Shown here piece by piece: positions 9,177 to 32,065 of a DNA stretch of 64,000 bases (its first letter is position 1; every line of letters begins with the position of its first letter). The notes beneath the pieces were generated by a model. The model was not told the DNA's origin. It saw only the letters and a program-made list of their open reading frames with translations, and searched no databases. Source of the DNA: Owenia fusiformis (lineage: Eukaryota); contig CAIIXF020000001.1 in NCBI GenBank assembly GCA_903813345.2, positions 23,126,001 to 23,190,000 of the forward strand. The letters are read 5' to 3'. Both the position numbers and the translations under genes were made by a program.

Positions 9177-9796
9177 CTATTAATAAAATTATGATGATCA
9201 TCATGTAGTTAAATGGAGGAACTACATTTTAACCAGGTATTCTTTTATGCATGGTGGGGTGTTTTTATCTTCTTTCATTTTTTGGTTATTTGATCAATAG
9301 TATATTTTAAATTTTAGATAATAATAGATAATTTTAGATAATAATACTCGATGTAGAATTATGTATGTAAACTATTTTTCCATGTTATAATTTTCAAGGG
9401 AATGCCAAAACTGCCCAATGATACACAAAGCCGCTGCTTTCCCTGAAATACCACGTGACAAATTATATATGCATTTTTTTGGATACATAAAACATGATAC
9501 AAGGCATTAAAATTCAAAATGTCACCATCTGCCATTTGTTAAAATTGCTGAACGCCAAAAGCTGACTGCCGATCACCGTCCACAAAAAGTTAGAGACTAA
9601 CAATATGTCACAACTTCTTCATAAAAATTACAAATGACCACAATGAAAAAATACCAAGTTTTAACTAGATGATTGAATGGACAGAAAAATAGACAAGTGG
9701 GCAACTCCATTGGCTCATCATGTAAGCCAAAAAGCAGGAAAATCAAAAATGGGAGAACAGAAAAAACATCAGGGGCAAAGAAGTATTACTACTCAC

Positions 9797-9907
9797 ATCC
9801 CCCATGACAGAGAGGAAGCCATGGTTAATGCCAAGACTGTGCCAAGACACATCAGCCACCTGATGGGAGATCAGCCCAAGTAGGAACACAATCAACTTCT
9901 CTGTGGC
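9797..9907 (-). CDS. GPLD1: GPLD1 coding exon 4
   Basis: ATEKLIVFLLGLISHQVADVSWHSLGINHGFLSVMGD; tacag acceptor, gtgagt donor, phase 0/0. Confidence 0.95.
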
Positions 9908-11104
9908 CTGTAAACACAACACATAAACATTAAATCAATCATATTTAATATTATTAGTACATTATACTTAAACATGGTAAGTTGGGGGTTATTCTTAAAA
10001 GTTTTTATTCATATTTCAATCATAAAGAACAATTAAGATATGATTTGTGTCGTGTTTTTTTTAATACTAAAAATGTTACAAATCATATGTTTTCTGTGAT
10101 TACAATATTGCAAAAAAATTGAATGAATCATCTTAACTCTCCATTTTCAATATGCTGAGAAAAACTATTTTATGAAATCTTAATAATTTTTGAATACATG
10201 TTTCAAGGTCTTGAATTGTATGAGCAAGCCTGTATCCAGGATTTCTCAAGTGGGGTTCTATTTTTAAGGCATTTGCACCCAGGTGGCGCCACCTAGAAGA
10301 TATGCCTGTCTTCATGGTCAGAAAATAGTGTTAATCTGTAATGGTCTGAACTTATTTGCGATAACCTAAGTGGCCTCCTTAACAATGTTGCGAGATTACT
10401 TTAATGTCAAGTTTAAATTGTGATATTAGTATTTCATTTCACTCGGACACTAACTTATAAACCACTTGACTAAATCACTTTTCGTGGTGTATTGGTGGTG
10501 ATCTATTGGTGATGTATTAGTGGTATATTAGATTTCTTTTTTACTTGGGTAATCTTATTACAATTCAATGATACTGGTCATTTTATCACTTCTTTTTTTC
10601 TTTTTTTTAATTCATGTATATATTTCTCATTTTATAAAGGTACCGTCCCAACAGACCTCCTTTTCTGCCCCCATCAGAATCAAACTTATTTTGCATCTAG
10701 AGTATCCTCACAAATGTACTTCACAATAATATTTCAAAATTAGGTCAAATGATGAGCCAATGAGGTCACTGGGTGCAAAAAGGTCAAGTTGGTAAAATCG
10801 ATCTAATGATCAAGTAATTTCCTTAAACATACCTAAATAAATTCAAATCATGAGTTAAACCTGACTTTACATTTATTTCCACGGGGAATAGGTACCTCAA
10901 TAGCCTTTGAGTAGTATTATACACCATACTTAACACAAGGAAATTTTTTTGTCAAAATACACGTACTGGTATACTGTCAAAATATTGTATTGTAATATAT
11001 TTGATATTAATATTCTAAAGCTTTGATACAACATATTAGTATTTATTGAATTTCTATGGGTACCAATAGGTACAGTTGCTGAAAGTTGAATGTACAGTTT
11101 CTAA

Positions 11105-11327
11105 GGGGTGGGGTCAAAATATCGATGTCCATCAAAAAAACGTAATTAATTTATTTAGGTGTAACCCCCCCCCTCCCCCTTGTAACAAAACCAAAAATCT
11201 TGAAAATTGAAATTCCTAGGAAAACGAAAATCGATGTCCGTCAACTAATTAAATCAGTGTTTGACCCCCTTCCCCTTATGAAATTATTTACGTTTTTCGA
11301 TTGACATCGATATTTTGACCCAACCCC
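11105..11327. mobile_element. PIF/Harbinger (Tourist-like) MITE
   Basis: About 48-bp TIRs GGGGT(G/T)GGGTCAAAATATCGATGTC..., TAA on both flanks. Confidence 0.85.
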
Positions 11328-12278
11328 TAACAGATATTTTAGTTATTTTAAAACTATTCCATGTCAGTATCGCTATCCTCGGATAAAGGCAAGTCTTTGG
11401 CATCATGGAGAGAGTCACCTAGGAAATCTTTTGAAAATTGATAGCCTTCATGTCTGGCAACTCCCAAATAGGTGGCATTGTATCCAAAATGGTGGCAGAA
11501 ATGTTTTAGAAAAAATACCAAAGAAGTTCAAAAAACTATATGAGCTATGTTCTCCACCACTTTTTTTGCAACTGAACACAGCTAAAAATAAAAGTGGTGG
11601 AGAACATAGCGCACAGTGAATTTGTCCATTCAATGAACCATGGTTCTATTCAATTGAGAATGGTAAATAATGGGGGTCTGGATTATAATCCCTTTTTATG
11701 CCACATATCATGCATCATCACACATAAATCTGCTGGATACTCTTCAGTAGGGATTAAATTATGCATAACTCACTTAAATAATACTTGAAAATTGTTTTTA
11801 AGGCTTTATTTACTACATTTTCTAAAGAACACTAAATTTCACAAATAATCTGCCATGATGGGAGTGGTTACAGAAATGGCCCAGAAATCATATTTTTTTA
11901 CAAAAATATTCACTATATTTTTCAAGAAAATAAAAATACAAATATCAGTCAAGAATATTCTGAACTTTGTTTTTCAAAAATCTATAATTGCGTTTTCATG
12001 AAATTTTTTAAGTCCTTAAAGGGATCCCAATAAGACTGTACCTTTGTATACATCAGGTTATTTACAATATTACAATATAAGATTAATCAAGTCATCATAT
12101 AAATAAACTCATTTAAATTATATGTCCAATTGTTATGTTATGTTTTTACCATACATTTACTTATAGGCCACTCGGGGTAGGCCACATATGATATGATATT
12201 ACAGCTTTAGTATATAATTACAGGCAATAGTTGGGGGTAGGGTGAGGATACATAATTGTACTTTAATATCACCTGTGT

Positions 12279-12345
12279 TATCAGCAGTGCACTTATATCA
12301 GCAGAGCATTTATTTCAGCAGTGCACTTATATCAGCAGTGCACTA
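12279..12345 (+). repeat. 17-bp tandem repeat, 4 copies
   Basis: TATCAGCAGTGCACTTA. Confidence 0.8.
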
Positions 12346-14449
12346 TATATAAAATGGGATTGCTGAGATCATCTTACTCAAGTCAACCTAGTTTCTAACT
12401 CCACAGAGTAGAAAATCTCAACGAATATTCATGAATTTCTAGGTCACGATGTACCATTTACTCCACCCTTGATTAAATTGGCAGATATTAAAGGACAGAC
12501 ATTAGAGATATATCAGAATCTCTAACAATTTAAGTATTTGTGTCACCATTTAGGAGTCTCAAAATTATACTATTGTTTTACTTGTCTCTACGGTTTGTGC
12601 CTAAGTGAGACGGAGGGCTTCATTATCACAAGTTTTTCTTACAATACATGTAATTATTATTTGTGTGGTGTCAGAGAACTAGTTTCAATTTGATGATTAC
12701 TCGATAAAGTGACATTATTATGACGTCATCTTTCAAGTCATTCTAAAAATGCTTGCAACTTATTTTTTCAAGAGACTGATCATTTGCATCTGCTAATGTC
12801 ACATGTTGAATGAGGCAATTAATCTATTGGAAAAAGGAGCACATGATTACAAGTTGATTTGATATTTATGAGTAGATAATCCATATGTATTCAAAAGTGA
12901 TTCTCAAATCTGTCTGTCAGATAATGAGTCCTGTAAGCAGGCTAGGATACACATGTTGTTCTATATGCATTCTATTTCTAAGCCAATTTTTGAGGATATT
13001 AAAAATGGAGGACAATTCAATTCCGAGTTTTTTGTAACATCGAAAGATTAGAGCTGAGCTACCCATTTTGCTATGTATTTTCAATGGACACAAATTTCTC
13101 TATTCGTATTTTTAAAAATCTCGAGTTAAAATTGTAATATAACTAGACTGGGGAAATTGAACAAGTTCAATTTTAGACTCCATATGACAGATTTGTTTTA
13201 AGTGATAGATAAGATAGATAGATATAGATTAGATTACATTAGATTAGATAAATAGGTAGGGAACATCAATTATCAAATTGATAAATAGATAAATAGATAC
13301 ATTTTTAATATTTTTTCAGTACTCTTGACTTTCTATGAGGATACCAGATCAATTTTTCTCGGATTTTCAAAACGCATTAACTTTCGGACAGGAAGTTGTA
13401 TCGCAGTTTGGTTTGCAGATTCTGATTCCTGAGAAAATTCTACCCTTATTTTATAACTCACATTAGATAGGATAGGACAAGATGGAATAGGATAAGAAGT
13501 ATAGGATATAGGAAGGAACGATAGGATAGAACAGGACAGAAGGATAAAGGATAGAATAGGAAGAAAGGATGAGAATAGTTTGCACAAAGCTATCACCTGA
13601 GAGATAGCTTTGGAAATCTTGATATTCCAAGTAACTTTATTTTGTAAAAATGTAGAAAACTTGGAAACACCCTACTTCAATCAATGCATAACATTCTTAA
13701 GTATCGTTTTTCTAACCATATTGGGCTATCCGGAGTGGAAGAAGAAATATATTGATGAAAATCTGATCGGAGTTGATCATTTTCAAGATGGCTTTTCAGG
13801 AAGTTGAGTGATGCGCATGCACCTCCATGCCATGGGATTCCCGCTTGCCGGTGAGACTTCCTACAGAAATCATGGAAATAATTTTTTCGTCAATTATACT
13901 GTCTCGTGACTCCAGATCGCGAAAAGAGGTCAAAATAAGAAGTTCACAAAATTTAAGGTTCGAGTTATGAAGGAGTGGTATCCATATGGTAAACTTTTTG
14001 AACACACGTTTCTCTTAAACCAGTCATCAAAACATTCTGAAAATTTTACACATCGTCAATTTAATTGTGATCTTTTGGATCAGGGGTGGATCTGGGAACC
14101 AACAAGGGGGGGGTCAAATTTCAGGTCAGAGAAAAAAAACTACCGCGCTTGTGCAGAAATAAAAACCCAAAAGTGGGCCCAAATTTGTTCAAGAGTCCGA
14201 TGCTCTACCATAAGACATAAGGGCCAGCCACTACAGCTGAGGCTGTAGTAGCAACTTGTTATCAAGGGTTATTACATTGTTATAGCAAAGAGAAAATCCT
14301 GAAATGACATGTATGATTATAAACTTCAGTGTAGTGTCATAAAATACATATATATAACAATTTCCATCAATTAATTGAGATTATATGATGAGTGTTCCTC
14401 AACACGCATGCCGTGTGCGTGGCAAACTCAAGGACACTTCCACACTGAA

Positions 14450-14549
14450 CCAATCAGCATCTGGTGATGTGTTCAAAGGTATCCTTTAAATATCTCAACA
14501 TTTCATACAAAACTCAGTTGCACTCTCGGAGAGCTTGAAAAAAGACAAG
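14450..14549 (+). promoter_or_regulatory. Core promoter and short non-coding exon 1 of the nested gene
   Basis: CCAAT at 14450, TTTAAATA at 14485, initiator TCAGTT at 14514-14519 (+1 about 14516), strong donor AAG|GTAAGA at 14549/14550. Confidence 0.55.
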
Positions 14550-15282
14550 GTAAGAAATCATTCTATATTTTCTATTGGCATACATGCATAATAATAAATC
14601 ACAAATTCACTTATATTTCTTTATTTGTTTGTCATTTCATAAGGAATATATTTGATGAATAAGGCTGATTCAAATTACTTTTCCTGAAAACCAGTGCTCA
14701 TAGTTTATCCCCTATAACAGAAATTATTGCTTATGATAATCAACTCGGTCAATTCTGACCCTAGTCAACTTCGACCTATGTATATTTTGAGTTGACCAAG
14801 ATTGCACTATTTTCACATGTGATTCTGTGATTCTAGCATGTGATTAATTTAAAACATCAATCACATTTTTTCGAACATTTTACCATTTTGACTATTTTAC
14901 CAACTTTTGGAATGCAAATTGAAAGAAGTATAGTTTGGATTTTTTTTGATTTTTTGTGTTTGTGTTTTCAATTTTCGAAATTGTTTTTTTGCAGTTTGAT
15001 AGATGTGCAATTGCTAAATACAGAATATCACATCATTTTGAGTGATATCATTTTTATCGCCGAGTTGATAGCAAATATAAACACGAGTGAGCGAAGTGAA
15101 TGAGTGTTGATATTGGATATCTATGAGGTGATAAAATTATATCACGAGAAATTATGTGATATTGGGTTTATCCCATGATTACAATCACCTTGTGATGTTC
15201 TGATCCAATTTCCAGGACATTGGCAGACAATATAAACTAGAAATTAGAATATCAATTGAATATTTGAAACACTTTATTTTAA

Positions 15283-16116
15283 AGGCCCCATGTAAAGTTT
15301 AAACCACTTTGGCTTATATTGTAGTCTTACCCAATGTTATCAAAGTGTGATATGTGAAACTTTTTTTTTTAATTTCAAAAAGTGGTTTTTGATAGACTTT
15401 TTGTTCCAAAATTTGTGAATTTATTTAAAACCAACTTTACGAGGTCACTCATATCTTCTAATTAGCCACAATTCATACCAATTCATAGCATTCATCCTCC
15501 CATGTTTTTTGCCGAAAAAAATTAAGAAAATCGGTTGATAAACAAGCGAGAAATGAACTTATCAGTGCATGAAAATGGTTCTGAGAAAAATGTATTTCAA
15601 AATTTTAGTTCTCATAGAAACCAATGGTACAATGATATCTAAAACATGATTTATTCTTCCTTTTAACCTGGTTAGACAATCAACATTGGTTTTTTATGAA
15701 AGTCTAGCATATTTAGAAAAGATTGACATTGAAAAAAAAAATTCAATTTTTTTCAAAAAGTTTTTGTTACCTTAGTGACATCACTAATGTTTCAAAATAT
15801 TTTTGATAAGCTAAAACATTGAAGTGGCCCATTAAATATGACATTTTATTATTGAAATAGTGTGTCTTTTGTTCAATCTTTGCATTGGTGTTAAAAAAAT
15901 AATCTTTTTTGAAATGCATTAAGAAATGTTTGATGATTAAGAAATTTCAACTTTTTTTGAAAAATGGCGGGAAATTTGAATATTTGAGAAATGAAATGCT
16001 CACAACTTTTTTTTCAAAAATTTTTTTTTGTTCAAAAATCTCTAAAATCACTTTTTAAGTTCTGACAAATAGTAAATGAATGATAAAAAAATATTTTCAA
16101 ACTTTAGACGGGGACT
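15283..16116. mobile_element. TTAA-flanked non-autonomous DNA transposon (Kolobok-like), nested in an older repeat at about 15025-16500
   Basis: TTAA|AGGCCCCATGTAAAGTTT ... AAACTTTAGACGGGGACT|TTAA. Confidence 0.7.
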
Positions 16117-16820
16117 TTAACAATTAAAAGTAAATAACATGATATTGTTCGTCATAAATACCATTTTTTAATCGTTAGTTAGCAGCCTTCTTATCAAATT
16201 ATATACACAATTGTAATTCAATACACCAATGAAACTTAAAGGGAATAAATTAATGGACCAATTTTCTCAAAAGAGAATAAATTATCTGACCTAATTTCCA
16301 ACAATATTGTGGCGCGAAATGCAGATGTGATATCACACGGATATGCGTGAGATAAACGATATCACACGCATATGAGTTTGATAAACGATTTTCTGGAAAA
16401 TATCACACGGTTTTCAATAATATCAGAAATATCAATAGCTGTTATTGTACAGATAACACATTAATCGTGGGATAATTTAAAATATCAAACACTGATATTG
16501 ATTTTTAAACAAATATTACTATAATTGAATAAAAACTTTGAATGTTTAAATTGAAAAGTGTAATATCAAACAAGAAATACAATATACAAATTATCAAACA
16601 TAGAATTGAAAAAATCAAAATTGTAAAAGAATTTGAATTGATAAGTGGAAATTCAAATAGCAAAATTGAAATACCGAACATAAAATTGAAGAAATTGAAT
16701 AAAGACGCTAAAAAGCCACAAAATACATCAGAAACAAAAAGAACATTTGATTTATTCAGACTAAAACTGTAATCCAGTTTTATCATTTCAGTATCCTTAG
16801 AAGCAGTACAGTATATAGAG

Positions 16821-16880
16821 ATGAATATACAAGTATATCTACTCCTGGTGTTCATTGCTCTAACGGCAACTTTAGTGTTG
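16821..16880 (+). CDS. Nested gene exon 2: signal peptide MNIQVYLLLVFIALTATLVL
   Basis: Acceptor catttcag at 16791, ATG at 16821, 20 mostly hydrophobic codons, phase-0 donor TTG|GTAAGA. Confidence 0.75.
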
Positions 16881-16932
16881 GTAAGATATTTCAATTGATG
16901 GCATAATCTTACAAAATATCTAAGCATAATGC

Positions 16933-18101
16933 AAGAAAACTCATCCGAAGACATCTCATCCCAAGACAACTCATCCCAAGACAACTCATCCGAAGACATC
17001 TCATCCCAAGACAACTCATCCCAAGACAACTCATTCCAAGACATCTCATCCCACGACAACTCATCCCAAGACAACTCCTTCTCAGACATCTCATCCCAAA
17101 ACAACTCATCCCAAGACATCTCACCCAAAGACAACTGATCCCATGACATGTCATCCCAAGACAACTCATCTGGAGACATCTCATCCCAAGACAACTCATC
17201 TGGAGACATCTCATCCCAAGGTAACTCATCCGAAGACAACTTATCCCCAAGACAACTCATCCCAAGACATCTCATCCCAAGACAACTCATTCATTCCAAG
17301 ACATCTCATCCCACGACAACTTATCCCAAGACAACTCCTTCCAAGAAATCTCATACCAAAACAACTCATCCCAAGACATCTCACCCCAAGACAACTCATC
17401 TCATGACATCTCATCCCAAGACAACTCATCTGGAGACATCTCATCCCAAGACAACTCGTTCCAAGACATCTCATCCCGGGATATCTCATCTATTCCCAAG
17501 ACATCTCATCCCAAAACAACTCATCCCAAGACATCTCACCCCAAGACAACTCACCCCATGACATCTCATCCCAAGACATCTCATCTCAAGACAACTCATC
17601 TGGAGACATCTCATCCCAAGGCAACTCATCCGAAGACATTTCATCCAAAGACATCTCATCCTAAGACAACTCATCCCATGACATCTCATCCCAAGACAAC
17701 TCATCTGGAGACATCTCATCCCAAGGCAACTCATCCGAAGACATTTCATCCAAAGACATCTCATCCTAAGACAACTCATCCCAAGACATATCATCCTAAG
17801 ACAACTCATCCGAAGACATCTCATCCCAAGACAACTCATACCAAGACAACTCATCTCATCCCGAGACATCTCATCCCAAGACAACTCATCTCATCCCAAG
17901 ACAACTTATCCCAAAACAACTCATCCCAAGACATCTCATCCAAAGACAACTCATCCCAAGACATCTCATCTCAAGACAACTCATCCGAAGATAATTCATC
18001 CCAAGACAACTCATCCAAAGACATCTCATCCCAAGACAACTCATCCCAAGACATCTCATTCCAAGACAACTCATCTCATCCCAAGACAACTCATCCCAAG
18101 A
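16933..18101 (+). repeat. 15-bp minisatellite (AGACA[A/T]CTCATCCCA)n, about 1.17 kb
   Basis: Directly visible tandem array; source of the spurious repetitive ORFs in several frames. Confidence 0.95.
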
Positions 18102-18376
18102 GATGAAGTGAGACTAACTTTATCAATAATATTAGTTGTTAAAAATACAGGGTGATCTGAAAAACAGAAATCACATATCTTACTCATTGATAAATGTCAC
18201 TTTTATATCAGCCTCTCAATTAATATGCTAAATTGAATTTTTCTATTTGGTCAAGTTTGTTGTGAACATGAACATTAACTCTGGGGATAATAATATGACT
18301 AACGCCAAAGAAAGAAATGAAAGAAACATTTATTTGTCTAATGATCAAGTAATATTTTCTAATTCTTTTCAAACAG

Positions 18377-18886
18377 TCTGACAGTAGCGGAAGCAGTAGC
18401 AGGAGTAAAAAAATTCGTGAGAATAGGAAATGTGGGGAAATAAAGTATGACTTCTTCAAACCAAAGAAAGGGGAATGTGAGGAAGGAACAGAATGCAAGT
18501 GTGATGAGCAAAAATCCAAAAAGATCAAGTGTTACTGCAGAGCAGTGCCTGAAACAACAACCTCTGATGCAGCAACAACAACCTCTGATCTAGCAATAAC
18601 AACCTCTGAAACTGATCTAGCAATAACAACCTCTGAAACTGATCTACAGGTAGCAATAACAACCTCTGAAACTGATCTAGCAATAACAACCTCTGATCTA
18701 GCAATAACAACCTCTGATCCAGCAACAACAACCTCTGATCCAGCAACAACAACCTCTGATCCAGCAACAACAACCTCTGATCCAGCAACAACAACCTCTG
18801 ATCTAGCAACAACAACCTCTGATCCAGCAACATCGACTTCTGATCCAGCAACAACAGTACCTGATTGTGATTCTGGGGTAACTTGA
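18377..18886 (+). CDS. Nested gene terminal exon A: Cys-rich module + Thr-rich mucin-like repeat
   Basis: Acceptor ttttcaaacag, phase 0; SDSSGSSSRSKKIRENRKCGEIKYDFFKPKKGECEEGTECKCDEQKSKKIKCYCRAVPETTTSD...(ATTTSDP)n...VPDCDSGVT*; ATTAAA at 18996. Confidence 0.75.
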   Translation, partial: SDSSGSSSRSKKIRENRKCGEIKYDFFKPKKGECEEGTECKCDEQKSKKIKCYCRAVPETTTSDAATTTSDLAITTSETDLAITTSETDLQVAITTSETDLAITTSDLAITTSDPATTTSDPATTTSDPATTTSDPATTTSDLATTTSDPATSTSDPATTVPDCDSGVT

Positions 18887-19204
18887 TATATATTTTGCAT
18901 ATACTTATGACATGGACAGAATAGCAAGAAAATATTTTTAGTATATTCTGTTTATTGATTATTACAGACCAGTAAAATGCTAAATGAATGTAAACATTAA
19001 AAACCATGAATCAAAAACACGGTGTAGCTGCTTGGTATTGCATTTACTATCTTGTTACATTTTGCATAATGATAATAACAGCCCATGCATCTTTTAGTCC
19101 ACATTCTTATCCCTGGGATTCATTGTATGCTCTGCGACAGAGACACAAAAGAAACATTTAGTTATTGAATTCTTAACTTATATTTTCTAATTGTTTTCAA
19201 ACAG

Positions 19205-19381
19205 TCTGACAGCAGCAGTAGCAGTAGCAGAAGTAAAGAGATTCGTGAAAATAAGAAATGTGGGGAAATAAAGAATGACTGCTTTAAACGGAAGGGGAAT
19301 TGTGAGGAAGGAACGGGATGCCAGTGTGATGAACCAAAAAGCAACAAAATCAAGTGCTACTGTAGAGCAACAATACCGTAG
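19205..19381 (+). CDS. Nested gene terminal exon B: paralogous Cys-rich module without mucin tail
   Basis: Same acceptor ttttcaaacag, phase 0; SDSSSSSSRSKEIRENKKCGEIKNDCFKRKGNCEEGTGCQCDEPKSNKIKCYCRATIP*. Confidence 0.65.
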   Translation, partial: SDSSSSSSRSKEIRENKKCGEIKNDCFKRKGNCEEGTGCQCDEPKSNKIKCYCRATIP

Positions 19382-19438
19382 GGAAAATTTGCAGTAGAAC
19401 TGTACACTTAACACTTTGCACTTATCTGCTACATTATC

Positions 19439-21071
19439 CATACCTGCCAACCTAAAACCAAAATTTTGCGGTAGATTTTTTTAAAACTGCTGTATTTTTG
19501 CGGTAGATTTTTTCAAAATACGGTAGTTTTTGCGGTATTTTTCAACAAAATTGCGGTAGTTTTTGCGGTAGATTTTAGAAAAAAACGGTAGTTTTTTGCG
19601 GTAGATTTTAAAAAAAACGTTAGTTTTTGCGGTAGATTTAAAAAATACGGTAGTTTTTGCGGTAGATTTTAAAAAAATACTGTAGTTTCAGAGGTTTGGG
19701 GTAGATTTTTGAAAAAAGTGTAATTTTGCGGTAGAAATTTGAAAAAAGCGGTAGTTTTGCGGAAGATTTAGAAAAAATGCGGTAGTTTTACGGTAGATTT
19801 TTAAAAATGCGGTAGTTTTTACGGTAGTTTTTGAAAAACCGGTAGTTTTGCGAAAGATTCTGAAAAAATGCGATAGTTTTACGGTAGATTTTGAAAAAAT
19901 GCGGTAGTTTTTACGGAAGTTTTTTGAAAAACCGGTAGTTTTGCTGAAAATTTTGAAAAAATGCGGTAGTTTTACGGTAGATTTTGAAAATTGCGGTAGT
20001 TTTTACGGTAATTTTTTGAAATACCGGTACTTTTGCGGAAGATTTTGAAAAAATGCGGTAGTTTTACGGTAGATTTTGAAAACTGCAGTAGTTTTTACGG
20101 TAATTTTTTGAAAAACTGGTACTTTTGCGGAAGATTTGCCAAAATGCGGTATTCTTCGGTAGATTTTGAAAAATGCGGTAGTTAAACCTTTATACAATGC
20201 GGTTTTCTATATTAATACAATGTTTACGTGGTCATATTGTTGTTGTTATTGTGAATACATATTTTACTGCAAGAGTGATTTTGATAATTACAGTTTGTAA
20301 AGCAGAACTACCACCTGAGAATTATACGAAACTAATATTTTCAAGAAAAAATAGATATACTATTTTCAAGAATAAATAGAGACTAAACACTTTTTATTCT
20401 TCATTTACCATGCCTACAATGGACTGACAGCAACTTTGGATTTTAATGTTTCAGCAAAATGTACATATACAACTTTTTTACAATAAATCTAGATTGATTC
20501 AAAATACGAACACAATATTCATATCTCCACTTTTATTCACCTTCTAACCAGTTTTTTTTAGATATCAGGATGTTTGGAAATACCATGAATGAAACATTTA
20601 CTGAAATACAAAATATGGATTTTACACGTTTTTACTCACCATCTTAGATGATCTATCATTTTAACGAATTGAAATGACAGACATAATGTTCATATAACAT
20701 AGGGAAGCCGTCCCAATAACAACAACGGGAAATTTTACGGTAGTTTGAACAAAAATACTGTTGATTTTAGCAGAAATACGGTAGATTTTCGAAAATTTAC
20801 GGTAGATTTTCAAAAATTTACGGTAGATTTTCAAAAATTTACGGTAGATTTTCAAAAATTTACGGTAGATTTTACGGCCGTTCTCATGGAATAAACGAGT
20901 TTTTTACAAAGAAAATTTACGGTAGATTACGAAAAAAATACGGTAGATTTTTTTACGGGCGTTTTTACGGGAAAAAATGGTATTTTTTTTACGGTAGTTT
21001 GTCATTTTTTTACGGAAAAACGAAAAATTTACGGTAGATTCCCGTAAAAATACGGTAGGTTGGCAGGTATG
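19439..21071. mobile_element. Non-autonomous hAT-like element with 5-bp TSD and internal (T[A/G]CGGTAG) tandem repeats
   Basis: TIR CATACCTGCCAACCTA ... TAGGTTGGCAGGTATG; TTATC on both flanks. Confidence 0.85.
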
Positions 21072-21180
21072 TTATCCCAAAAATTATAGGAAAAAGAGAA
21101 TAGAATAAAATCACCTATAAATAACCTGTTATGTTTATGCTTTTTTAGTATTTTTAAATAATTGGGGTGAAATAATAATA

Positions 21181-22274
21181 AACAAGGCATTAACATGACA
21201 AATTTTACCACCTACTTGCTCACAATTATTTTTAGTTCATCTTAAAGTTGCAACAATTAGTGCAGATCATGGGCAAGTGTCAAAATATATTTATGTTTGG
21301 ACATTTCATCAAGACTAACATATATTTTTATTATCTATAAAGAAACCCCCTAGATAAACATTATTTCAGCTGATATTCCTCTTGAAACATGGTGGATCCT
21401 ATAAATCAAAATGTGGATTTCCCCTTTTTGAAGCTTTGAACCGAATTTACACTTCTTTATGCTGAAATTGACATTTGAGGAAAATAGGCATGTCAAAGAT
21501 GATGTTCAGTCAAATGTTACCTTGATAGCTCAGAAAAAGTAAAATTGTTCCTATTTTCTCTCTACAGGCCTTATTGCCCCTTTAAGTCAGATTTGAATTT
21601 CTGAGAACTTGTAAATATCATTTTGAAAAAAATTGGTCAATCTTTAAGCAAGTTGAAAAAAGACCTTTTTTGACCCTGAGAAGGTCATTGAAGGTGAAAT
21701 CTCAAATCAAGTCAGATTTGAACTTCGAGAACTTCTAGATGACTTTAAAAACATTGGTCAATTTGAAGCAAGTTGAAAAATACCTTTTTGACCTTGAGAA
21801 TGTCATTGCAGGTCAAATTTATAGTCGGATTTGAACTTTTGAGAACTTCTAGATGATTTTGAAAAATTGGTCAATTTGAAGCAAGTTGAAAAAAGACCTT
21901 TTTGACCAATTTCTGACATTGAGAAAATAAATGAAGGTCAAATCACAAATCTAAATTCAAATTTAATAATGTAGATGATTTTGAAAAAATTGGTCAATTT
22001 GAAGCATGTTGAAAAAATACATTTTTTACCTTTTTCACATTGAAAAGGTCACGGAAGGTCAAGTATTAAATATAAAGTCAGATTTGAACTTCTGAAAACT
22101 TGTAGATGATTTTGAAAAAAACTGAAGTCATTCTAAACGATATTTGTTAAGTTACTGGAAGTTTTAAAATTTGTTACAGACGCCACCCGCTGATTGCCAC
22201 CCGCCAATCGCCAACTGCCGTCACAAAAAAACGGAGACCATAACAATGTCACCACTTTTTGGTGGTGACATAAT
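21181..22274 (-). mobile_element. Helentron-type non-autonomous element (HINE-like), family 1
   Basis: Ends AACAAGGCATTAACATGACAAA.. and hairpin TGTCACCACTTTTTGGTGGTGACA; CCGCC/GACGCC microsatellite; internal tandem units of about 120 bp; contains a TTAA-flanked insertion at about 21245-21582. Confidence 0.7.
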
Positions 22275-23773
22275 AATTATGAAAATACACACATAACTTT
22301 ATATCATATCATCATATATCATAACGTAACTCATTTTTTGGCAAAATTGTCAAAATCAAACACCCTGGAATTTTTTGTAAAAAGTGTACTCACTCTTGGA
22401 AAATCCTGAATACGAACCTGAATACAGTACATATATAAGTCATATTTTACCAAACCTTGTTCTCACTGATATTTCTAAATGAAGACGTTTTCAATGACAG
22501 CATATATTTATGTATTATAACTTGTCCATGTGAGTTTTGATTCATCAAGCAGATGGCAAAAGAGATTCACTCATATCCACTATCTATTAACAGAAAAATT
22601 AATTTGCTTAAAAGAAATCATTTGAAAGGATACGCTTGAGGGCATCTGTATTTAGTAGAAGGTACTAGGAAAGAAACAATTCATAAAGCAACATGTTATC
22701 AGATACGTATGTTTTTTTCCAGAAACTGAGATAGCACCCATGTTTTGAGTTTTGGCACCAACCACCAAACACCAACTGCCAAACACCATCCAAAAAAACT
22801 TGTGGTGCTAACATAAAAACCTACTCAATTAACACCTTTTCATTTGGTACATGTAAAAGGAAAGAAACAATGACAAGCTTTCAATTTCTTTCAGAATCTG
22901 AGATGGCAACCATGTTTTGATTTGCAAAATGTCACCACCTGCCAGTTGTTACAGATGCCGACCACCAAACATTATCCACAAAAATAATGTTATAGGGGTG
23001 GTGGGTTTCATCTGTCAACTTCAAGGTCATCAATGTGGCTGTGGCACCCTCTTACGGTTATGCCTACCAATCCCATGATGCATCAGTGGTTAATGTTTTA
23101 TGATCAGTACTTCACTATAAAGTGATTTTTAAACATCCAATAAGGTCACATTGTTTTTAAAAGGAAAGCAACTTGCAATGTATTTTATTCTTATTTTGAA
23201 GCGTATTACTAAAATTGGACCTCAATAAAATTATAATGGTACATAGCAAATTCCAACAAACAATATATATCAAATATCCATAAAGAGGGTTATATTGTTT
23301 TTATTTTCAAATGTTGCTGTTCATGCATTTGGATGTAAAATAAATACCTTTAAATATCATAATGGTGGCATGGATGGATAGGTGGGCGAGTTGATGGATG
23401 GATGGATGGATAGACGGACAGATAAATGGACAGACCAATAGATGACATACAAGGGCACACTATATCCAAGTATAAGTTTTTAGTTGGAATATAACAGGCA
23501 TATAATCAATTGTAATTTTTAAGTCAAACCAAAACAACTTATCACTTCAAAAATCTAATCACTAAGAATTTCATACTAATATCTCTGATTTTGTGAATTT
23601 TAAAGTTTCCTATAATGGTTGGATTTGTTACATTGTATATAGAGCATGAGCACTTACAACTTTGAATGACTAGATTTCAGTTGGAATCGATAGTTAATTC
23701 CTTTGCCAATATAATTCTTTTTCATTGATCTCCTGTTTCATTTTTATTTTATTTTACAAAGACTATGTCATAC

Positions 23774-23871
23774 CTTATTCCAAGGTGGAGGGTAGTGGTT
23801 TCTTATGTAGTTAATGGTAGCATTCATGAATGGCGTCCAATGGGTATCCTCAGATATATCATGGTATACAC
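23774..23871 (-). CDS. GPLD1: GPLD1 coding exon 3
   Basis: (G)VYHDISEDTHWTPFMNATINYIRNHYPPPWNK; ttcag acceptor, gtatg donor. Confidence 0.95.
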
Positions 23872-24158
23872 CTGAAATTCATAATTTTACATCATATCAA
23901 GATCAATATCAATCATACCAATAATTGTCTTTACACAAGTGAGGAACTTCCGAAATTCAGAGGTTGAAATTCATTCCAACTTAGAAATGTCCATAACTAC
24001 TGTATCAGTGTATATGGCTGTAACGATACTGTATAGTAAGCTGTTACTACAATCACAACTAGCGTAATATAGCTGTCAGTAACTGCGTTGAGGACCATAC
24101 AGGCTCTGGATCTAAGGGCCCAAGATTCTATTATGGCTCATAATTTCATATATCTTAC

Positions 24159-24317
24159 CATATTGACAGATGGGATTATAATAAGCATCTGGGTATGGGT
24201 TTCCAGCCTGAAAGGCATCCTGGTGCTCCACTATAAGTTTCTGGAAGTCTACAGTCTTCTCACCCACTTGTGCTTGCATTACTCTTCTGCCATCATAGAA
24301 CTCATATGCTCTGTGGG
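24159..24317 (-). CDS. GPLD1: GPLD1 coding exon 2
   Basis: (A)HRAYEFYDGRRVMQAQVGEKTVDFQKLIVEHQDAFQAGNPYPDAYYNPICQY(G); tgtag acceptor, gtaag donor. Confidence 0.92.
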
Positions 24318-24516
24318 CTACAGAAAAAAATCACAACCATATAAGTGACCACAGTTTACCTCTGGAGTTTACCACAGTATAGTCTTGCTTCAAGACCCTG
24401 GACCTCCTTATCTTCTTTTCATCTTGTAATATGTTGGAGAAGTAGATAAGGGAGGGGGGGGGGGGGGTCCACAGTCTTGAAGCAAGACTAACCACCATAA
24501 AAAGAGTCTCCATATA

Positions 24517-26581: not shown

Positions 26582-28068
26582 GACAACTCATCCCTAAGAC
26601 AACTCATCCCAAGACAACTCATCCCCAAGACATCTCATCCCAAGACAACTCATCCCAAGACATCTCATCCCAAGACATCTCATCCCAAGACAACTCATCC
26701 CAAGACATCTCATCCCAAGACAACTCATCCCAAAGATAACTCTTCCCAACTTGAAATACAACATAAATTTATACAATTAATTTCAACTTTTGAAATAAAT
26801 ATTTGAAACATTTTAGAAATTTTAGCAGTAAGCACACTACTGTGTTTGGCCATGGAATATATTTTTTATTTTGTAGTTAGTTAAGTCCAGTTTTAGTTGA
26901 TTTTTGTTGATTGATTGGGATAAAGATAAACATGTTCAAATTAATATATACTTTGATTATTAAATCAAAGATCATCAAAGGTGTCAGATTAGGATTAAAG
27001 CAATAAGAATGTATTATCCAGGGTAAATTATCAGAATAATTCCCCCAGATTAATTCAGTCTTTGTTTTAAAATATTTTGCTTAATTCCAATATGTCATAT
27101 TTGGCTTATTCTTAAATAAGATTTCCAATTTTAAACTTTCAGAATTATGATGATTGAATTTGGAAATTATGTCTTTGACTTTTATCTTCAATTCTATATT
27201 CTCAAATATATTGAGAAAAAGTAAAAGTAGAACATAACTTTAAAGTGCCATTTAGAAATGCTAAAATTATCAATATTTAGATTGAGTGTATAATCAAATA
27301 TCACTTTGTAATCGTAAAAATGAAAAAGGGATATATATATAATATAGAGGACTTATTAAATAATTTATCAATTATACTAGTGGGATGAGTTGTCTTGGGA
27401 TGAGATGTCTTGGGATGAGTTGTCTTTAAAGGGTTCCGATAAGCATCCCGTATAAAAACAATATGGCGGCTCCAGGCGAATCAACTGGATCAGTCCATTT
27501 TTAAGAAATAAGGGGAGTTCTGTAAAATCCAGTTTATTTAAATTGTATTTGAGATAAAGTAATCCGTTTATAATGATTTTGAAAACGTTATCCAAAGAGT
27601 GATTGCGTTCAACGAATACATGTACAACAGCCAATATAAATCCTTGTATTAGAACTGCTTTGTTTCATTTGTAGGATATTTCATATTCCAAGCTGTGTGC
27701 TATTACGTTATGGGGAAATTTAGATGCCAATTTTTCCTTATTATACACAAATAGAAGATCCTGAAACTTCACCCATAAATGTGAAATTGATTTGTCAAAA
27801 TAAAAATCACCCTTTTATAAATGTGTGACGATCTATTATATACTTATGCTATATAACAGTTAGAGGTGTTGACACAACGGCCTCGAACCTGTGAACCCTT
27901 GAGTATTATTCCGGGATCGGGCCTTTTATACTAAACGGGGAGCAACACCAGAAACGAGTGTTCGATTTGCTAAACGATATGCGTCACCCTTTAAGGGATG
28001 ACTTGTCTTGGGATGACTTGTCTTAGGGATGACTTGTCTTGGGATGAGTTGTCTTGGAATGAGTTGTC
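26582..28068. repeat. 15-bp repeat blocks in inverted orientation (foldback-like element)
   Basis: Forward block 26582-26750; reverse blocks 27381-27425 and 27995-28068. Confidence 0.7.
27430..27990. mobile_element. TTAA-flanked insertion (Kolobok-like) splitting the reverse 15-bp block
   Basis: TTAA|AGGGT ... ACCCT|TTAA, with the satellite resuming on both sides. Confidence 0.6.
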
Positions 28069-29334
28069 TAGAAACCAAATTCATGTACTCTAATCTAAGG
28101 ACCCTATTATTATTAAGGCTCTGAATAATTGTTATCTGAAATTGGCAAAGAAATGCAAATTTCATTATCATCAGATTTGCGCCTGTGTTAAACCAGAGGA
28201 ACTCCAATATTTACTACACATATCGTTAGTACCTCAGTGTAAATACTCACATCTGATTGGTCAATTAGTGGTCAACATTTTTGCCTGTACCCCACCTGTG
28301 CATTTTTTATGGGATATCTTATTGACCGTGTATGTTACTGTTCTACACTTGTGAATTATGGGGAAAATGACGTCATAATATTTACTGAAAAAATGGATGG
28401 AAAGGATGTGCGTTGTACCACAATCCGTGCGTGTTGTATTGAAAACCATTACTGTATACCAACAGCCCGACACAATGACTTTGTGATGTAAAAAGGCTTG
28501 TAATGAAAGATGTATGATAAGAGTAGAAGAGTAGGATAAGTATTATTGAAAATCATGCACATTTAATCAGGAAGACCAGGCAAGAAATAGCAACAGAATA
28601 CTAATCAAGTATATGCTTCATCAAGGAAAGCAAACTCAAAACCGCAAACACCCTAAAATCACAGCCCAAGTCAAACCTTCATGTACAAGTTGTAAGTCTA
28701 CATGATCTATGACCGAATTTCCAGAGAACTTAATTTGTTCCATCTATATATGATTATTAAAACCAAATGCTGTGAGCTCTATTATCAACAAAGTTTTTAC
28801 TAAAAATTTCTTCCGCTGCGCCCTCTTCTCACATTTTGCCATAGGAATGATTGGGAGAAATAAAAAGAGCAAATGGCTTATTATTTAACAGAGAATTGAA
28901 TATGTCAATATTACACACAATAGGATAGTTTCTAAATAGAAGAAAAACCAATGAAATCTAGTGCTGCCATCTTTTATTCAGCTTTTAATTTGAGCTAGAG
29001 TTCCATTCACTTACATGTTAAAATCTTGGAAAAGTTGCTTAATTTCATGATTTATCAAAGGGTGTTAGTTGAATCTGTATAAAACTTGAATGATATACCA
29101 CATGATGACCATGTTTATGTACATGTTGTAAATGTTGGTTGACATACAAATAATCCAAGGTTTTAAAGAATTTTAGCATTGCATCTTTGAACATTTGGCC
29201 CAAGTTGTTTTAAATTGTCATAGAAAATTATTCAAATTACATAACTGTGTAAATCAAATCTATTATAGGAGAAAACATTTCACTGAATTCAAATATGCCA
29301 TTTAAAAGAAGGCAAAGTAAGTCATTAGAGGTCA

Positions 29335-32065
29335 GCTATGAGAAATACAGACTGGGAAAATATATTCCAAAATGAGCCAGATACCAACATCATTACCTTG
29401 AACTTTACCTCCAAACTTAAAGAACTTTATTCAACTTTTATTCCAAACAAAGTAATTACAATTAAATCTAACGATAAATTCTGGTTTAATGATGACATTA
29501 GAACTCAAGTTGACAAAAAGAAGCATCTCTATAGAAAAATGAAAAATAACCCCACTCTTGAAAATATAAATAAATATAAAAACCATGCCAAAAAAGTTGC
29601 TAACTTAATAGAAAATGCAAAAACAAAATCTGAAAAACAAGCTATTGATTCCATTTCTAAATTTAAAAAAAATGATAAAAAATACTGGTCAGTTATTCGT
29701 AGACTCTGTGGCAAGAAAAGAACTTGCTCATCAATTCCTTCTATTTTTGATAATAATGGTAATTTACATATGAAGAATGTCGACAAAGCAAATGCCTTTC
29801 TTAATTTCTTTTCTGATAAAAACCACACCTACGATTTACCCAATTCCATTCCAAACTTCCCTGATAGAACTAACTCTTTTCTTATTTCAATTCAAACGGA
29901 CCGAGAAGAGGTCATGAAGTTAATTTTAGATTTGGACATTCATAAAGCTACTGGCCCCGACCTTATTTCTAATCACATGTTAAAACTCACAGCTCATACT
30001 CTAGCCCAACCACTATCCACACTCTTCAACATCATGTTATCCAAAGGTGTATTCCCATCTACGTGGAAACTAGCAAATGTATGTCCTATATTCAAGAAAA
30101 ACGATAAATGTAACATTAACAACTATAGACCAATAGCCCTCTTGAGTACTATTTCTAAATTACTTGAAAAGATCATTGCAAATCGAATAACAAAACATCT
30201 CCTTTCTAATGACCTCCTTTTCAAATACCAATCTGGCTTCCTCCCTGGCCACAGCACTCAATCTCAACTAGCAGCAATTGAACATTACCTACAAGACAAT
30301 ATAAATAACAAGAAATCTGTAAAAACTATCTTTTTAGACATTGCTTCTGCATTTGACCGTGTCCCCCCACACTTTACTATTACACAAACTAAAAGCTTAT
30401 GGCATAAGGGGCATGCTACTCAAACTACTCAAAAATTACTTACTAGATCGCAGAATAAAGGTTAACATATCTGGCATATCTTCTAACATATCCGACCCAC
30501 ACTTTATCAACTGTGGCGTTCCCCAAGGCTCAATCATTGGTCCCATATTGTTCCTAGTATATATAAATGACTTACCTGATAACCTAGACTCCAAATGTTT
30601 CATATATGCTGACGACACCTCAATATATTTCCCCTTTGACCCAAATAGCCCTAGTGACATTGATCAGACTGTTGCTCGTAATCTCCTTGCTATTGAAAAT
30701 TGGTCACTTACTTGGAAATTAACATTTAAACCTGAAAAAAGCTTTGAACTTATTTTCCACAGTTCCAGAACCAATAATGTAAATATAAATCACTCAAACC
30801 TTTTCAACCAAGTTATTCAGAGAGTACCAAGTCACAAACATCTGGGATATGTCTTTGACCAACTCCTATCAAATAAAGACCACATCTTAGGTCTTCGAAA
30901 TAAAATTACCAAACTCACAAATCCCCTTAAAGCCCTCAAATCTAAACTGACATCTTCTCACTTGGAAACACTTTTTAAGTCCTACATTCTCCCACACTTT
31001 GACAATGGATCACTTCTTTTTGACTCATCTTCCAAGTATTTACTTGGATATCTAAATAGTGCCTACTATCAATGTGCTCTTATCTGTTCAGGTTGTCTAC
31101 CAGGAACCAGCACAACTAAAGTTCTTAACATATTAAATTGGCCAAGCCTAGAAACTAGACGAAAACTCCAAATTAACAACTTCATGTTCAATGTTAGTAA
31201 AGGTACATCTCCACCATACATAAACGATATTTTTGATAAGTTTCGATGTGATACTCAAAGAGAACTACGACATACTCGCCCCTTTAGGCTACCCAACCAT
31301 GCCACTACTAAATACCTGAACTCCTGCATACCAAATGCAATCTCCCATTGGCTATCTGTACCAATGAATATTCAAACAAGTAAAACCCTCATTGCCTTTA
31401 AGAACAACAATCGCAAGCACCTTCTCAACCTTGACATAAACATAATCCCTACCTCAATGCTAAATATTTCTAGAAATGAAGAAACACTTATTAATAGGTT
31501 TAGGGTAGACCTGCTCTTCAGGGCTCAACTCTTTGCCCACAATTACACCTTCATCAGCTCTCCTAATTGTTCTTGTGGTCTACCCGAAACTCCAAAACAC
31601 TTCTTTTTTCACTGCCCTCTGAATGAAAATGCAAGAACCATCTTTTTCAATACTCTCTATACTGAAACTCCTTTGATCCCCACTAACCAATCCACACTTT
31701 TAGAATACCTAGCCTTTGGCAATCATAATTTTAGCAAGGATGAAAACACAAAAATCTTTACTCTGACTTCTGCCTTTATTAAGAAATGGCTTACCCCATA
31801 TTGAACAAGACTGAAGAAGACTATCTTAGAACCTATTGTACCCTGCCTTGTCTTGCAAATATAAATTACATTGTCCCTCTGCCCTGTATTTCCCCCAGTC
31901 CCAGCCCAGCTCAGACCCCCCCCCCTTCCACCCCTCTTCATCTTTTTCCCCGCTTGGCTAGAGTGCTTATAATGCCAAAATGGTGATTAGCACTTGAATA
32001 TGCTCTCTTGTATTTACTATATTACCCCATGTACATCTATTTTTTATAAATAAATAAATAAAAAA
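29335..32065 (+). mobile_element. 5'-truncated non-LTR retrotransposon (CR1/L2-group LINE) in GPLD1 intron 1
   Basis: RT motifs KATGPD, NYRPIALL, FLDIASAFDRV, GVPQGS, YADD; C-terminal CSCG...ET..H....CP; (AAAT)n/A tail; TSD AGAGGTCA at 29327-29334 and 32066-32073; endonuclease domain absent. Confidence 0.93.
29338..31804 (+). pseudogene. LINE ORF2 reverse transcriptase, split by one +1 frameshift near 30365
   Basis: ORFs 29338..30465 and 30341..31804 join as ...AFDRVPHTLLLHKL... if one C is removed from the C6 run at 30363-30368. Confidence 0.88.

Follow-up and report, generated by a model that had tools for sequence, protein, structure and literature searches.

Introduction

Lineage-specific families of secreted proteins that are rich in cysteine or resemble mucins are common among the orphans of invertebrate genomes, and finding a further one is in itself unsurprising. 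Several described systems come close to the one that we report here. The Sgs glue proteins of Drosophila start with a signal peptide and have short Cys-rich ends around a central Thr-rich in-frame repeat that is expected to be O-glycosylated. Knottins are locked by disulfides, connected I-IV, II-V and III-VI in a threaded knot, into small antiparallel beta folds, and those of spiders usually carry two adjacent cysteines (CC). The full N-terminal domain of the insulin-like growth factor binding proteins (IGFBP) has 12 Cys and a GCGCC-type motif. We analysed 64,000 nucleotides of the marine annelid Owenia fusiformis, now a developmental and genomic model, whose tube is made of cemented grains. 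The stretch (GenBank assembly GCA_903813345.2, contig CAIIXF020000001.1, positions 23,126,001 to 23,190,000 of the forward strand) is called the window below and positions are counted from its first letter. Between 14450 and 19381, on the plus strand and within an intron of a GPLD1-type gene that runs on the minus strand, lies a gene that very probably codes for a secreted protein. In our preferred model two basic Cys modules flank an acidic Thr/Ser-rich linker. This is the layout of the Sgs proteins; the module spacing is without the adjacent CC of spider knottins and the GCGCC-type motif is absent from the sequence. We put the probability of the whole explanation, that is the nested gene, its two-module model, its Owenia family and the mechanism inferred for the protein, at about 0.5.

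Results

The gene as we reconstruct it has four exons. A non-coding leader exon with a putative core promoter (14450-14549) was placed by its motifs and its donor. A motif scan found CCAAT at 14450-14454, TTTAAATA at 14485-14492 and TCAGTT at 14514-14519, and the donor after 14549 reads AAG/GTAAGA (a slash marks the boundary). Should these motifs be genuine, they would place the transcription start near 14516 rather than at 14450. Exon 2 (16792-16880), delimited from the sequence, the public protein CAH1773749.1 and hydropathy, follows the acceptor ...tttcag/16792. It holds 29 nt of 5' untranslated region (UTR) and, from the ATG at 16821-16823, 20 codons (MNIQVYLLLVFIALTATLVL) that end in phase 0 at 16880/GTAAGA. 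With a mean Kyte-Doolittle hydropathy of 2.7 over residues 5-20 this N-terminus looks like a signal peptide. Exon 3 opens at ...caaacag/18377 and its frame starts with SDSSGSSSRSKKIRENRK. Its first part (18377-18547), defined from the sequence, alignment and AlphaFold2, encodes a Ser-rich stretch and a basic, Lys/Glu-rich module 1 of six Cys spaced C-x14-C-x5-C-x-C-x9-C-x-C, after which a Thr-rich tail begins. The second part (18548-18877), delimited by Tandem Repeats Finder (TRF), composition and RNA reads, encodes an acidic Thr/Ser-rich, mucin-like domain of the Pro/Thr/Ser (PTS) type, and the open frame runs to a stop at 18884-18886. Exon 4 (19205-19381; tblastn E 7.7e-17) is opened by ...caaacag/19205 and ends with the stop at 19379-19381. 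It carries a duplicate of the Ser-rich stretch and a basic module 2 with seven Cys. The segment between them (18878-19204), read from the sequence, is intron 3 if a donor at 18877 is used and otherwise three codons, the stop and 3' UTR. A first-pass annotation, made from the sequence, had described a signal-peptide exon with a phase-0 donor, Ser-rich and Cys-rich exons opened by acceptors and the same Cys spacing in the first of them. All three were recovered: the 20 codons close at 16880, the acceptors lie at 18377 and 19205 and the spacing is exactly as noted.

The acceptor and Cys module are present twice, at 18320-18544 and 19148-19369, with 83% nucleotide identity over 226 nt. Module 2 is 79% identical to module 1 as protein and retains all six framework Cys; its seventh lies in loop 1 and both indels are in frame. 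By the Nei-Gojobori method the copies differ by 13.8 synonymous changes over 28.7 sites (proportion pS 0.48, corrected rate dS 0.77) and by 17.2 non-synonymous changes over 142.3 sites (pN 0.12, dN 0.13), giving a dN/dS of 0.17 (Fisher p 3e-5). The last 24 intron bases ahead of both acceptors are identical at 23 of 24 positions, and 9 of the 33 bases further upstream differ. As the frame, the Cys and the acceptor have been kept despite the synonymous divergence, exon 4 does not appear to be an unused pseudo-exon; the second copy serves as a coding exon in the same frame or did so until recently. The dN/dS indicates that both copies have been maintained as coding sequence under purifying selection.

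A phase-0 donor (GGG/GTAACT) follows 18877, three codons ahead of the exon 3 stop. Splicing from it to 19205 gives a precursor of 245 amino acids composed of signal peptide, Ser-rich stretch, module 1, Thr-rich linker, Ser-rich stretch and module 2, from which a mature secreted protein of about 225 residues would be released. This model is collinear block for block with a complete Owenia paralogue, P0003 (CAH1776480.1), which also has 245 residues and runs from signal peptide through S-rich stretch, module, PTS repeats, S-rich stretch and module to a short tail. Two further paralogues, P0002 and P0008, have two modules each, and in all four of these a Cys precedes the module at a short distance and loop 1 holds an additional one. 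Once spliced, module 2 gains the same layout: exon 3, ending in ...VPDCDSG, supplies the upstream Cys, and the loop-1 Cys belongs to the module itself. The two-module model contains 14 Cys compared to 7 in either one-module model. The second Cys exon thus most likely adds a second module and we lean towards the existence of a two-module isoform. The product of 189 residues proposed in the first-pass annotation is arithmetically right (20 + 169 codons) but probably incomplete, since the exon 4 duplicate likely adds a module. It is possible that a one-module isoform of this length, ending at 18886, coexists with the longer form.

The modules define a family in Owenia. A profile of the two window modules was compared by hmmsearch with 1.84 billion representative proteins and gave six matches at E<=0.001, four of them from Owenia (P0001 to P0004, E 6e-33 to 1e-5). 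The other two, P0005 from a European Nucleotide Archive contig and P0006 from Pseudomonas (E 8e-5 and 5e-4), match over about 30-38 residues, are repetitive and are without the full Cys framework; they are probably chance matches, although the repeated C-E-T-G-x-x-C-x-C of P0005 could conceivably be a remote echo of the module. Word-indexed searches with a profile of five modules returned solely Owenia proteins, one among 408 candidates of near length and four among the 8000 longer candidates scored, adding P0008. A cluster look-up added P0007, a complete single-module Owenia member of 113 residues with 7 Cys past the signal peptide. The five paralogues are CAH1776480.1 (A0A8S4N6N2), CAH1786694.1 (A0A8J1U3P5), CAH1782201.1, CAH1799896.1 and P0008. 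Member proteins lie on contigs of 31.9, 35.8, 37.3, 40.8 and 62.2 Mb, five distinct contigs and therefore at least five dispersed loci, in addition to the local exon duplication.

After a Ser-rich stretch the family framework reads K-C-x13-14-C-E-[ED]-x-T-x-C-x-C-x9-11-C-Y-C and both window modules conform to it. Six aligned modules share 17 invariant columns, comprising the six framework Cys, flanking K/G/E/T/Y positions and two Ser. A signal peptide together with a Thr/Pro/Ser-rich repeat after the module is present here, in P0003 and in P0007. The partial protein P0008 has in addition an EGF_CA/EGF_3 match at residues 3-44 (E ~1e-9), separate from its two eight-Cys modules. Its C-terminus is an Arg/Gly/Trp/Asn-rich repeat (RRGRWGNSN...) which resembles read-through into a non-coding repeat and may be an annotation artefact. 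We found no publication on this module family in the Owenia literature as judged from its records. Judged by these homology searches the gene belongs to a multigene family that is detectable only in Owenia fusiformis. The earlier suggestion of a lineage-specific, small disulfide-rich secreted protein is in agreement with these data, as the credible homologues among the 1.84 billion representatives and in the word-indexed searches were solely from Owenia, the N-terminus is signal-peptide-like and the six-Cys framework is invariant in six of six modules.

Part of the gene is already present in public databases. Searching with the Cys-module protein returned a single match at 100% identity (one of two candidates), CAH1773749.1 (P0001), an NCBI entry of 107 residues named "unnamed protein product, partial [Owenia fusiformis]". 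It covers 10 codons of what we read as 5' UTR and the signal-peptide exon and then continues straight into SDSSGSS..., reading across the 16880/18377 junction that the first-pass annotation had predicted; as far as its sequence tells, the public annotation uses this junction independently. Its first codon is a Val (G+TA) placed exactly on the predicted 16792 acceptor, which is no proof of the leader exon because 14549 and 16791 are both G. The protein ends within the tandem repeat, at about 18607. Because the short-read contigs of runs X3 and X4 break at this point as well, this mid-frame end is consistent with a transcript-derived model. As far as the excerpts of PMC9977687 go, gene models were built from STAR, StringTie, Trinity and Mikado evidence with Augustus and PASA, 99.29% of transcripts were RNA-supported and models that resembled transposable elements or overlapped repeats were taken out.

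Reads and contigs were compared over 18102-19463, and none of them shows the junctions 16880/19205 or 14549/16792. In run X22 all five RNA reads fall inside exon 3 (18424-18837) with none in the flanking intron bins, and all five are oriented as a stranded library of the deoxyuridine triphosphate (dUTP) type gives for plus-strand RNA. Runs X3 and X4 were rejected as RNA, their introns being covered as evenly as their exons and one of them showing an adapter-like loose end, and are DNA-like. One X4 contig joins 19193 back to 18366 ("goes back 828") although the two sides share just 19 bases; it runs from an intron variant preceding exon 4 into exon-3-type sequence with differences of its own. 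It may come from a haplotype in which copy-number variation or gene conversion has added or recombined a unit of module and linker, or else be an assembly chimera.

The linker has 110 residues with 38 Thr, 15 Ser, 19 Asp plus Glu and no Lys or Arg, which amounts to 55% S+T+P and a net charge of -19. It is encoded by in-frame tandem repeats of 21 and 27 nt (TRF) and falls within the PTS-repeat definition. The modules by contrast are basic, with isoelectric points (pI) of 9.1 and 8.7 and net charges of about +5 and +3 for modules 1 and 2. By composition the layout would be that of a cysteine-capped mucin-like glycoprotein, glycosylation being predicted. The 21-nt array has 8.8 copies with 94% matches, a self-identity that suggests recent expansion. 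Over 18553-18856 short contigs of both DNA-like runs have a word depth several-fold higher than the flanks, as is seen for collapsed repeats. Given the near-identical 21-nt copies and the raised word depth, allelic length variation of the mucin-like linker is likely.

All of these exons lie within a 13.9-kb intron of the host gene (9908-23773, minus strand), which is flanked by AAG/GTATGA and ...TTTACAG/. The downstream host exon frame (9746-9907, minus strand), identified by Pfam and its acceptor, encodes ATEKLIVFLLGLISHQVADVSWHSLG... and matches positions 77-98 of the Zn_dep_PLPC profile (E 1.9e-5). The exon upstream of the intron (23774-23878, minus strand) has its intron-side boundary at 23774, set by the donor AAG/GTATGA, and the next upstream open reading frame (ORF) at 24115-24330 on the same strand matches profile positions 21-51 (E 0.027). 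Each ORF alone scores under the 26.8-bit cut-off of the family, as is normal for single exons, and the two part-matches are collinear on the minus strand. Zn_dep_PLPC is the catalytic domain family of GPLD1, and from these part-matches the host appears to be a GPLD1-type gene. The antisense nesting in a GPLD1 intron that had been proposed for the gene is thereby upheld, its plus-strand exons sitting in a minus-strand intron with Zn_dep_PLPC matches on its flanks.

The surrounding sequence is rich in repeats. Intron 2 (16881-18376) contains a minisatellite (16932-18101; TRF, 15-bp unit, about 76 copies, 78% match) which has stops in all frames and is non-coding for the gene. A 30-nt pattern of two minisatellite units, allowing up to 3 mismatches, occurs 48 times in the window against 0 expected: 37 matches are in intron 2, seven at 26595-26730 on the same (plus) strand and four at 27383-27427 and 28027-28071 on the opposite (minus) strand. 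The inverted arrangement at about 26.6-28.1 kb might mark a mobile element. Downstream of the gene, satellites of 31, 92 and 21 bp (TACGGTAGATTTT...AAAAA type) occupy 19464-20183 and 20729-20949; they begin about 80 nt past the exon 4 stop and may be part of the 3' UTR or follow it directly. Further along, two overlapping plus-strand ORFs in different frames (29329-31804) match successive parts of the RVT_1 profile (E 2e-15 and 1e-14) and by their sequence are what is left of a retroelement reverse transcriptase, broken by a frameshift. In Pfam, three further ORFs from the window had no matches.

We compared the Cys module with described families and folds. In Pfam five modules matched no family at cut-off and each sub-threshold family appeared in one module of the five. 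The ISAV nucleoprotein domain, PTN_MK_N, Neuraminidase and Toxin_35 (E 0.14, module 2 only) were of this kind, mutually inconsistent, and were set aside as noise. CBM_14 (Peritrophin-A) did not match the modules at E<=10; only the first half of the module spacing (C-x14-C-x5-C) is similar to its consensus. EGF profiles in Pfam gave no match in the modules either. A profile search of the PDB with the module had no match at E<=10 and Foldseek found none in the PDB at E<=0.001. The view that no family could be assigned thus stands, the Pfam, PDB profile and Foldseek searches all having ended without a significant match.

AlphaFold2 modelled module 1 with a predicted local distance difference test score (pLDDT) of 77 and a predicted template modelling score (pTM) of 0.57, with three beta strands, and an eight-Cys module of P0008 with pLDDT 80 and pTM 0.62. 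Both models are small three- to four-stranded beta folds. An exhaustive structural aligner (VIA) found for neither model a neighbour at Z>=5, values of Z<8 being counted as noise. For each model Argos is the first neighbour listed (Z 4.5 and 4.7) and CART comes next (Z 3.8 and 4.0). About 36 of the 50 neighbours in one of the two lists are small knottin or toxin peptides by title (Z 2.2-4.1, root-mean-square deviation (rmsd) about 1.6-3 A over 29-47 residues), with tachystatin B (Z 3.6) and tachystatin A (Z 2.7-2.8) present for both models. Other weak neighbours are the IGFBP N-domains and SIBD-1 (Z 2.2-3.2), Dickkopf and colipase. An ESM Atlas model of P0003 similarly fell near clusters of IGFBP, CART, DKK and small carbohydrate-binding modules at template modelling (TM) scores of 0.5-0.6, "under the bar", and the ESM Atlas feature search gave no usable match. 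A loose likeness to IGFBP N-terminal modules had been remarked on in the first-pass annotation. Structural comparison echoes it weakly (VIA Z 2.2-3.2, Foldseek E 2.1-2.5, Atlas TM 0.51-0.57), but the corresponding family PF00219 was unlisted for the five modules at E<=10 and for four paralogues at E<=1, where HMMER filters remove most matches above E ~0.1. Because IGFBP recurs as weak neighbours without a Pfam match we regard this as resemblance only: the models suggest that the likeness is one to small disulfide-rich beta folds in general and does not amount to membership.

Discussion

Our results describe a gene in which duplication of an exon and its conservation argue for a second Cys module. 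A simpler gene model would end after exon 3, with 189 residues, the stop at 18884-18886 and polyadenylation after an ATTAAA at 18996. Exon 4 would then be an alternative terminal exon joined to the signal-peptide exon, giving 78 residues like P0007, or the relic of a neighbouring duplicate gene. We consider this one-module gene doubtful, yet a number of observations weigh on its side and against ours. The 18877/19205 junction is in no read or contig over the stretch compared (18102-19463). The 18877 donor GTAACT is weaker than the GTAAGA of the other two donors and stands three codons ahead of the stop. The ATTAAA is 110 nt beyond that stop whereas the nearest AATAAA or ATTAAA past the exon 4 stop is at 20371, about 990 nt away, and by its motifs such a layout suits an isoform ending after exon 3. 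The RNA signal totals five reads from about three fragments, all on exon 3; exon 4 has no reads in X22 or X20, and X20 has none over 18102-19463. Three fragments are however too few to weigh for or against the two-module model. The even Cys number of that model is a weak argument, because P0007 has 7 Cys in its mature form and each module of P0003 has 7, and the extra loop-1 Cys of module 2 occupies another alignment column than that of P0008. A complete single-module member is moreover known in P0007 (113 residues). What tips the balance for us towards two modules is that the dN/dS of 0.17 and the kept acceptor show exon 4 coding in frame, that tblastn with the signal peptide found no second exon for it in the window, the self match being the only one below E 1, and that P0003, P0002 and P0008 share the spliced architecture. 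A further rival would deny the gene any function, as transposon-borne exons or transcriptional noise in the GPLD1 intron. The satellites, the nearby reverse-transcriptase remnant and the module copies on several chromosome-sized contigs would suit it, but we find it very improbable: the two local copies are under purifying selection, the paralogues are 48-57% identical with conserved architecture and signal peptides, Pfam found no transposon domain in the exons or paralogues, and models of such origin were removed from the annotation according to the excerpts of PMC9977687. The restriction of the family to Owenia, on the other hand, may partly reflect a short, fast-evolving query and the libraries searched.

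As to its physiological role, we speculate that the signal peptide would be cut and the Thr/Ser-rich linker O-glycosylated into an extended, hydrated and anionic spacer, at whose ends the compact, disulfide-locked cationic modules could bind anionic or particulate partners. Free Cys may cross-link chains, and the secreted protein could contribute to the mucus, the tube lining or the glue of the worm. With small mucins and insect glue proteins as analogues, we tentatively favour a role that is structural or adhesive or lies in mucus or the tube lining, and the cationic knottin-like modules would fit antimicrobial or toxin-like roles equally well. In a host-defence precursor the modules would be antimicrobial or chitin-binding in the manner of tachystatins, and the acidic glycosylated linker would neutralise them or tether them in mucus. 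The basic modules (pI 8.7-9.1) beside a strongly acidic linker and the tachystatins B and A among the neighbours of both models speak for this, and immune effectors typically belong to secreted families that are lineage-specific, multi-copy and fast-evolving. We still think it unlikely, as every structural match is below the noise bar (Z<8), dibasic processing sites are absent from the sequence flanking the modules after the last Cys, and the EGF_CA domain of one paralogue is more typical of matrix proteins. Less probable again is a toxin-like or signalling ligand, either an inhibitor cystine knot (ICK) type peptide acting on a receptor or channel, as do CART, AgRP and spider toxins, or a protein that sequesters ligands as Argos and IGFBP N-domains do. 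The prevalence of small knottin and toxin peptides by title (about 36 of 50 in one list), Argos and CART at the head of both lists (Z 4.5-4.7 and 3.8-4.0) and the Toxin_35 hit to module 2 (E 0.14) would fit; against it, there is no significant sequence or fold match, the modules remain on long mucin-like linkers without obvious cleavage sites, and Owenia feeds on deposits and suspended matter and is not known to have a venom apparatus. Carried further, our structural proposal would make the family an undescribed class of annelid biomaterial proteins, each a block polyampholyte of cationic knots at the ends of an anionic O-glycosylated rod, cross-linked by unpaired Cys and secreted by tube glands so that grains of sand and shell stick to the organic lining of the tube. 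This is a long shot, somewhat less probable than the defence role; if true, it would be an adhesive chemistry other than the 3,4-dihydroxyphenylalanine (DOPA) and phosphoserine cements of sabellariid worms.

While the gene was already known as an unnamed public fragment, the fuller model, the conserved exon duplication and the definition of the module family are added here. The gene model improves from 107 residues to a protein of probably 245 residues with two modules, possibly accompanied by the 189-residue isoform, and a small, apparently Owenia-restricted family is defined whose Cys module is outside all the domain libraries searched. The locus shows cleanly how a gene with its own transcription can lie antisense within a host intron, and it illustrates one mode of growth, by exon duplication together with expansion of a coding minisatellite. 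Its value would rise if expression or proteomics linked the family to tube building, mucus or immunity.

Compared to known systems, the modules share with the knottins (tachystatin B, 2dcw; J-atracotoxin, 1dl0; mu-agatoxin, 1eit) and CART (1hy9) a disulfide-locked antiparallel beta structure with at least six Cys, and these are the commonest neighbours of both models, with nearly the whole target aligned at Z 2-4.1. These scores are nevertheless far under the noise bar and without a Pfam or PDB sequence match, and the window modules are tied to a mucin-like linker whereas knottins are freed as peptides of 30-40 residues. Argos (3c9a), which sequesters its ligand and is built of three disulfide-rich beta domains, is the top neighbour of both models (Foldseek E 0.77), but at 5-14% identity and an rmsd of 3.0-5.7 A the match is sub-significant and there is no sequence relationship. 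SIBD-1 (3zxb), IGFBP-5 (1boe and 1h59) and IGFBP-3 (7wrq) match weakly in fold over the C-terminal half of the domain, and the modules of the window family differ from the IGFBP N-domain in having 6-8 Cys. For the Sgs glue proteins, a sub-threshold match to New_glue (PF21827) is confined to the Thr-rich part of P0002 (E 0.003, 17.7 versus 31 bits) and is compositional; their organism and tissue are other ones and the Cys modules are not homologous. The closest relatives remain the Owenia paralogues. Their linkers differ, with the unit TTTSDPA here and TEAPTMASNTT in P0003, extra Cys fall in different loops, P0008 alone starts with an EGF_CA domain and none of them is named or functionally characterised. 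They have in common with the window gene the signal peptide, the Ser-rich stretch, one or two modules of 48-57% identity built on K-C...G-x-C-E-[ED]-x-T-x-C-x-C...K-x-K-C-Y-C, and the Thr/Pro-rich repeats.

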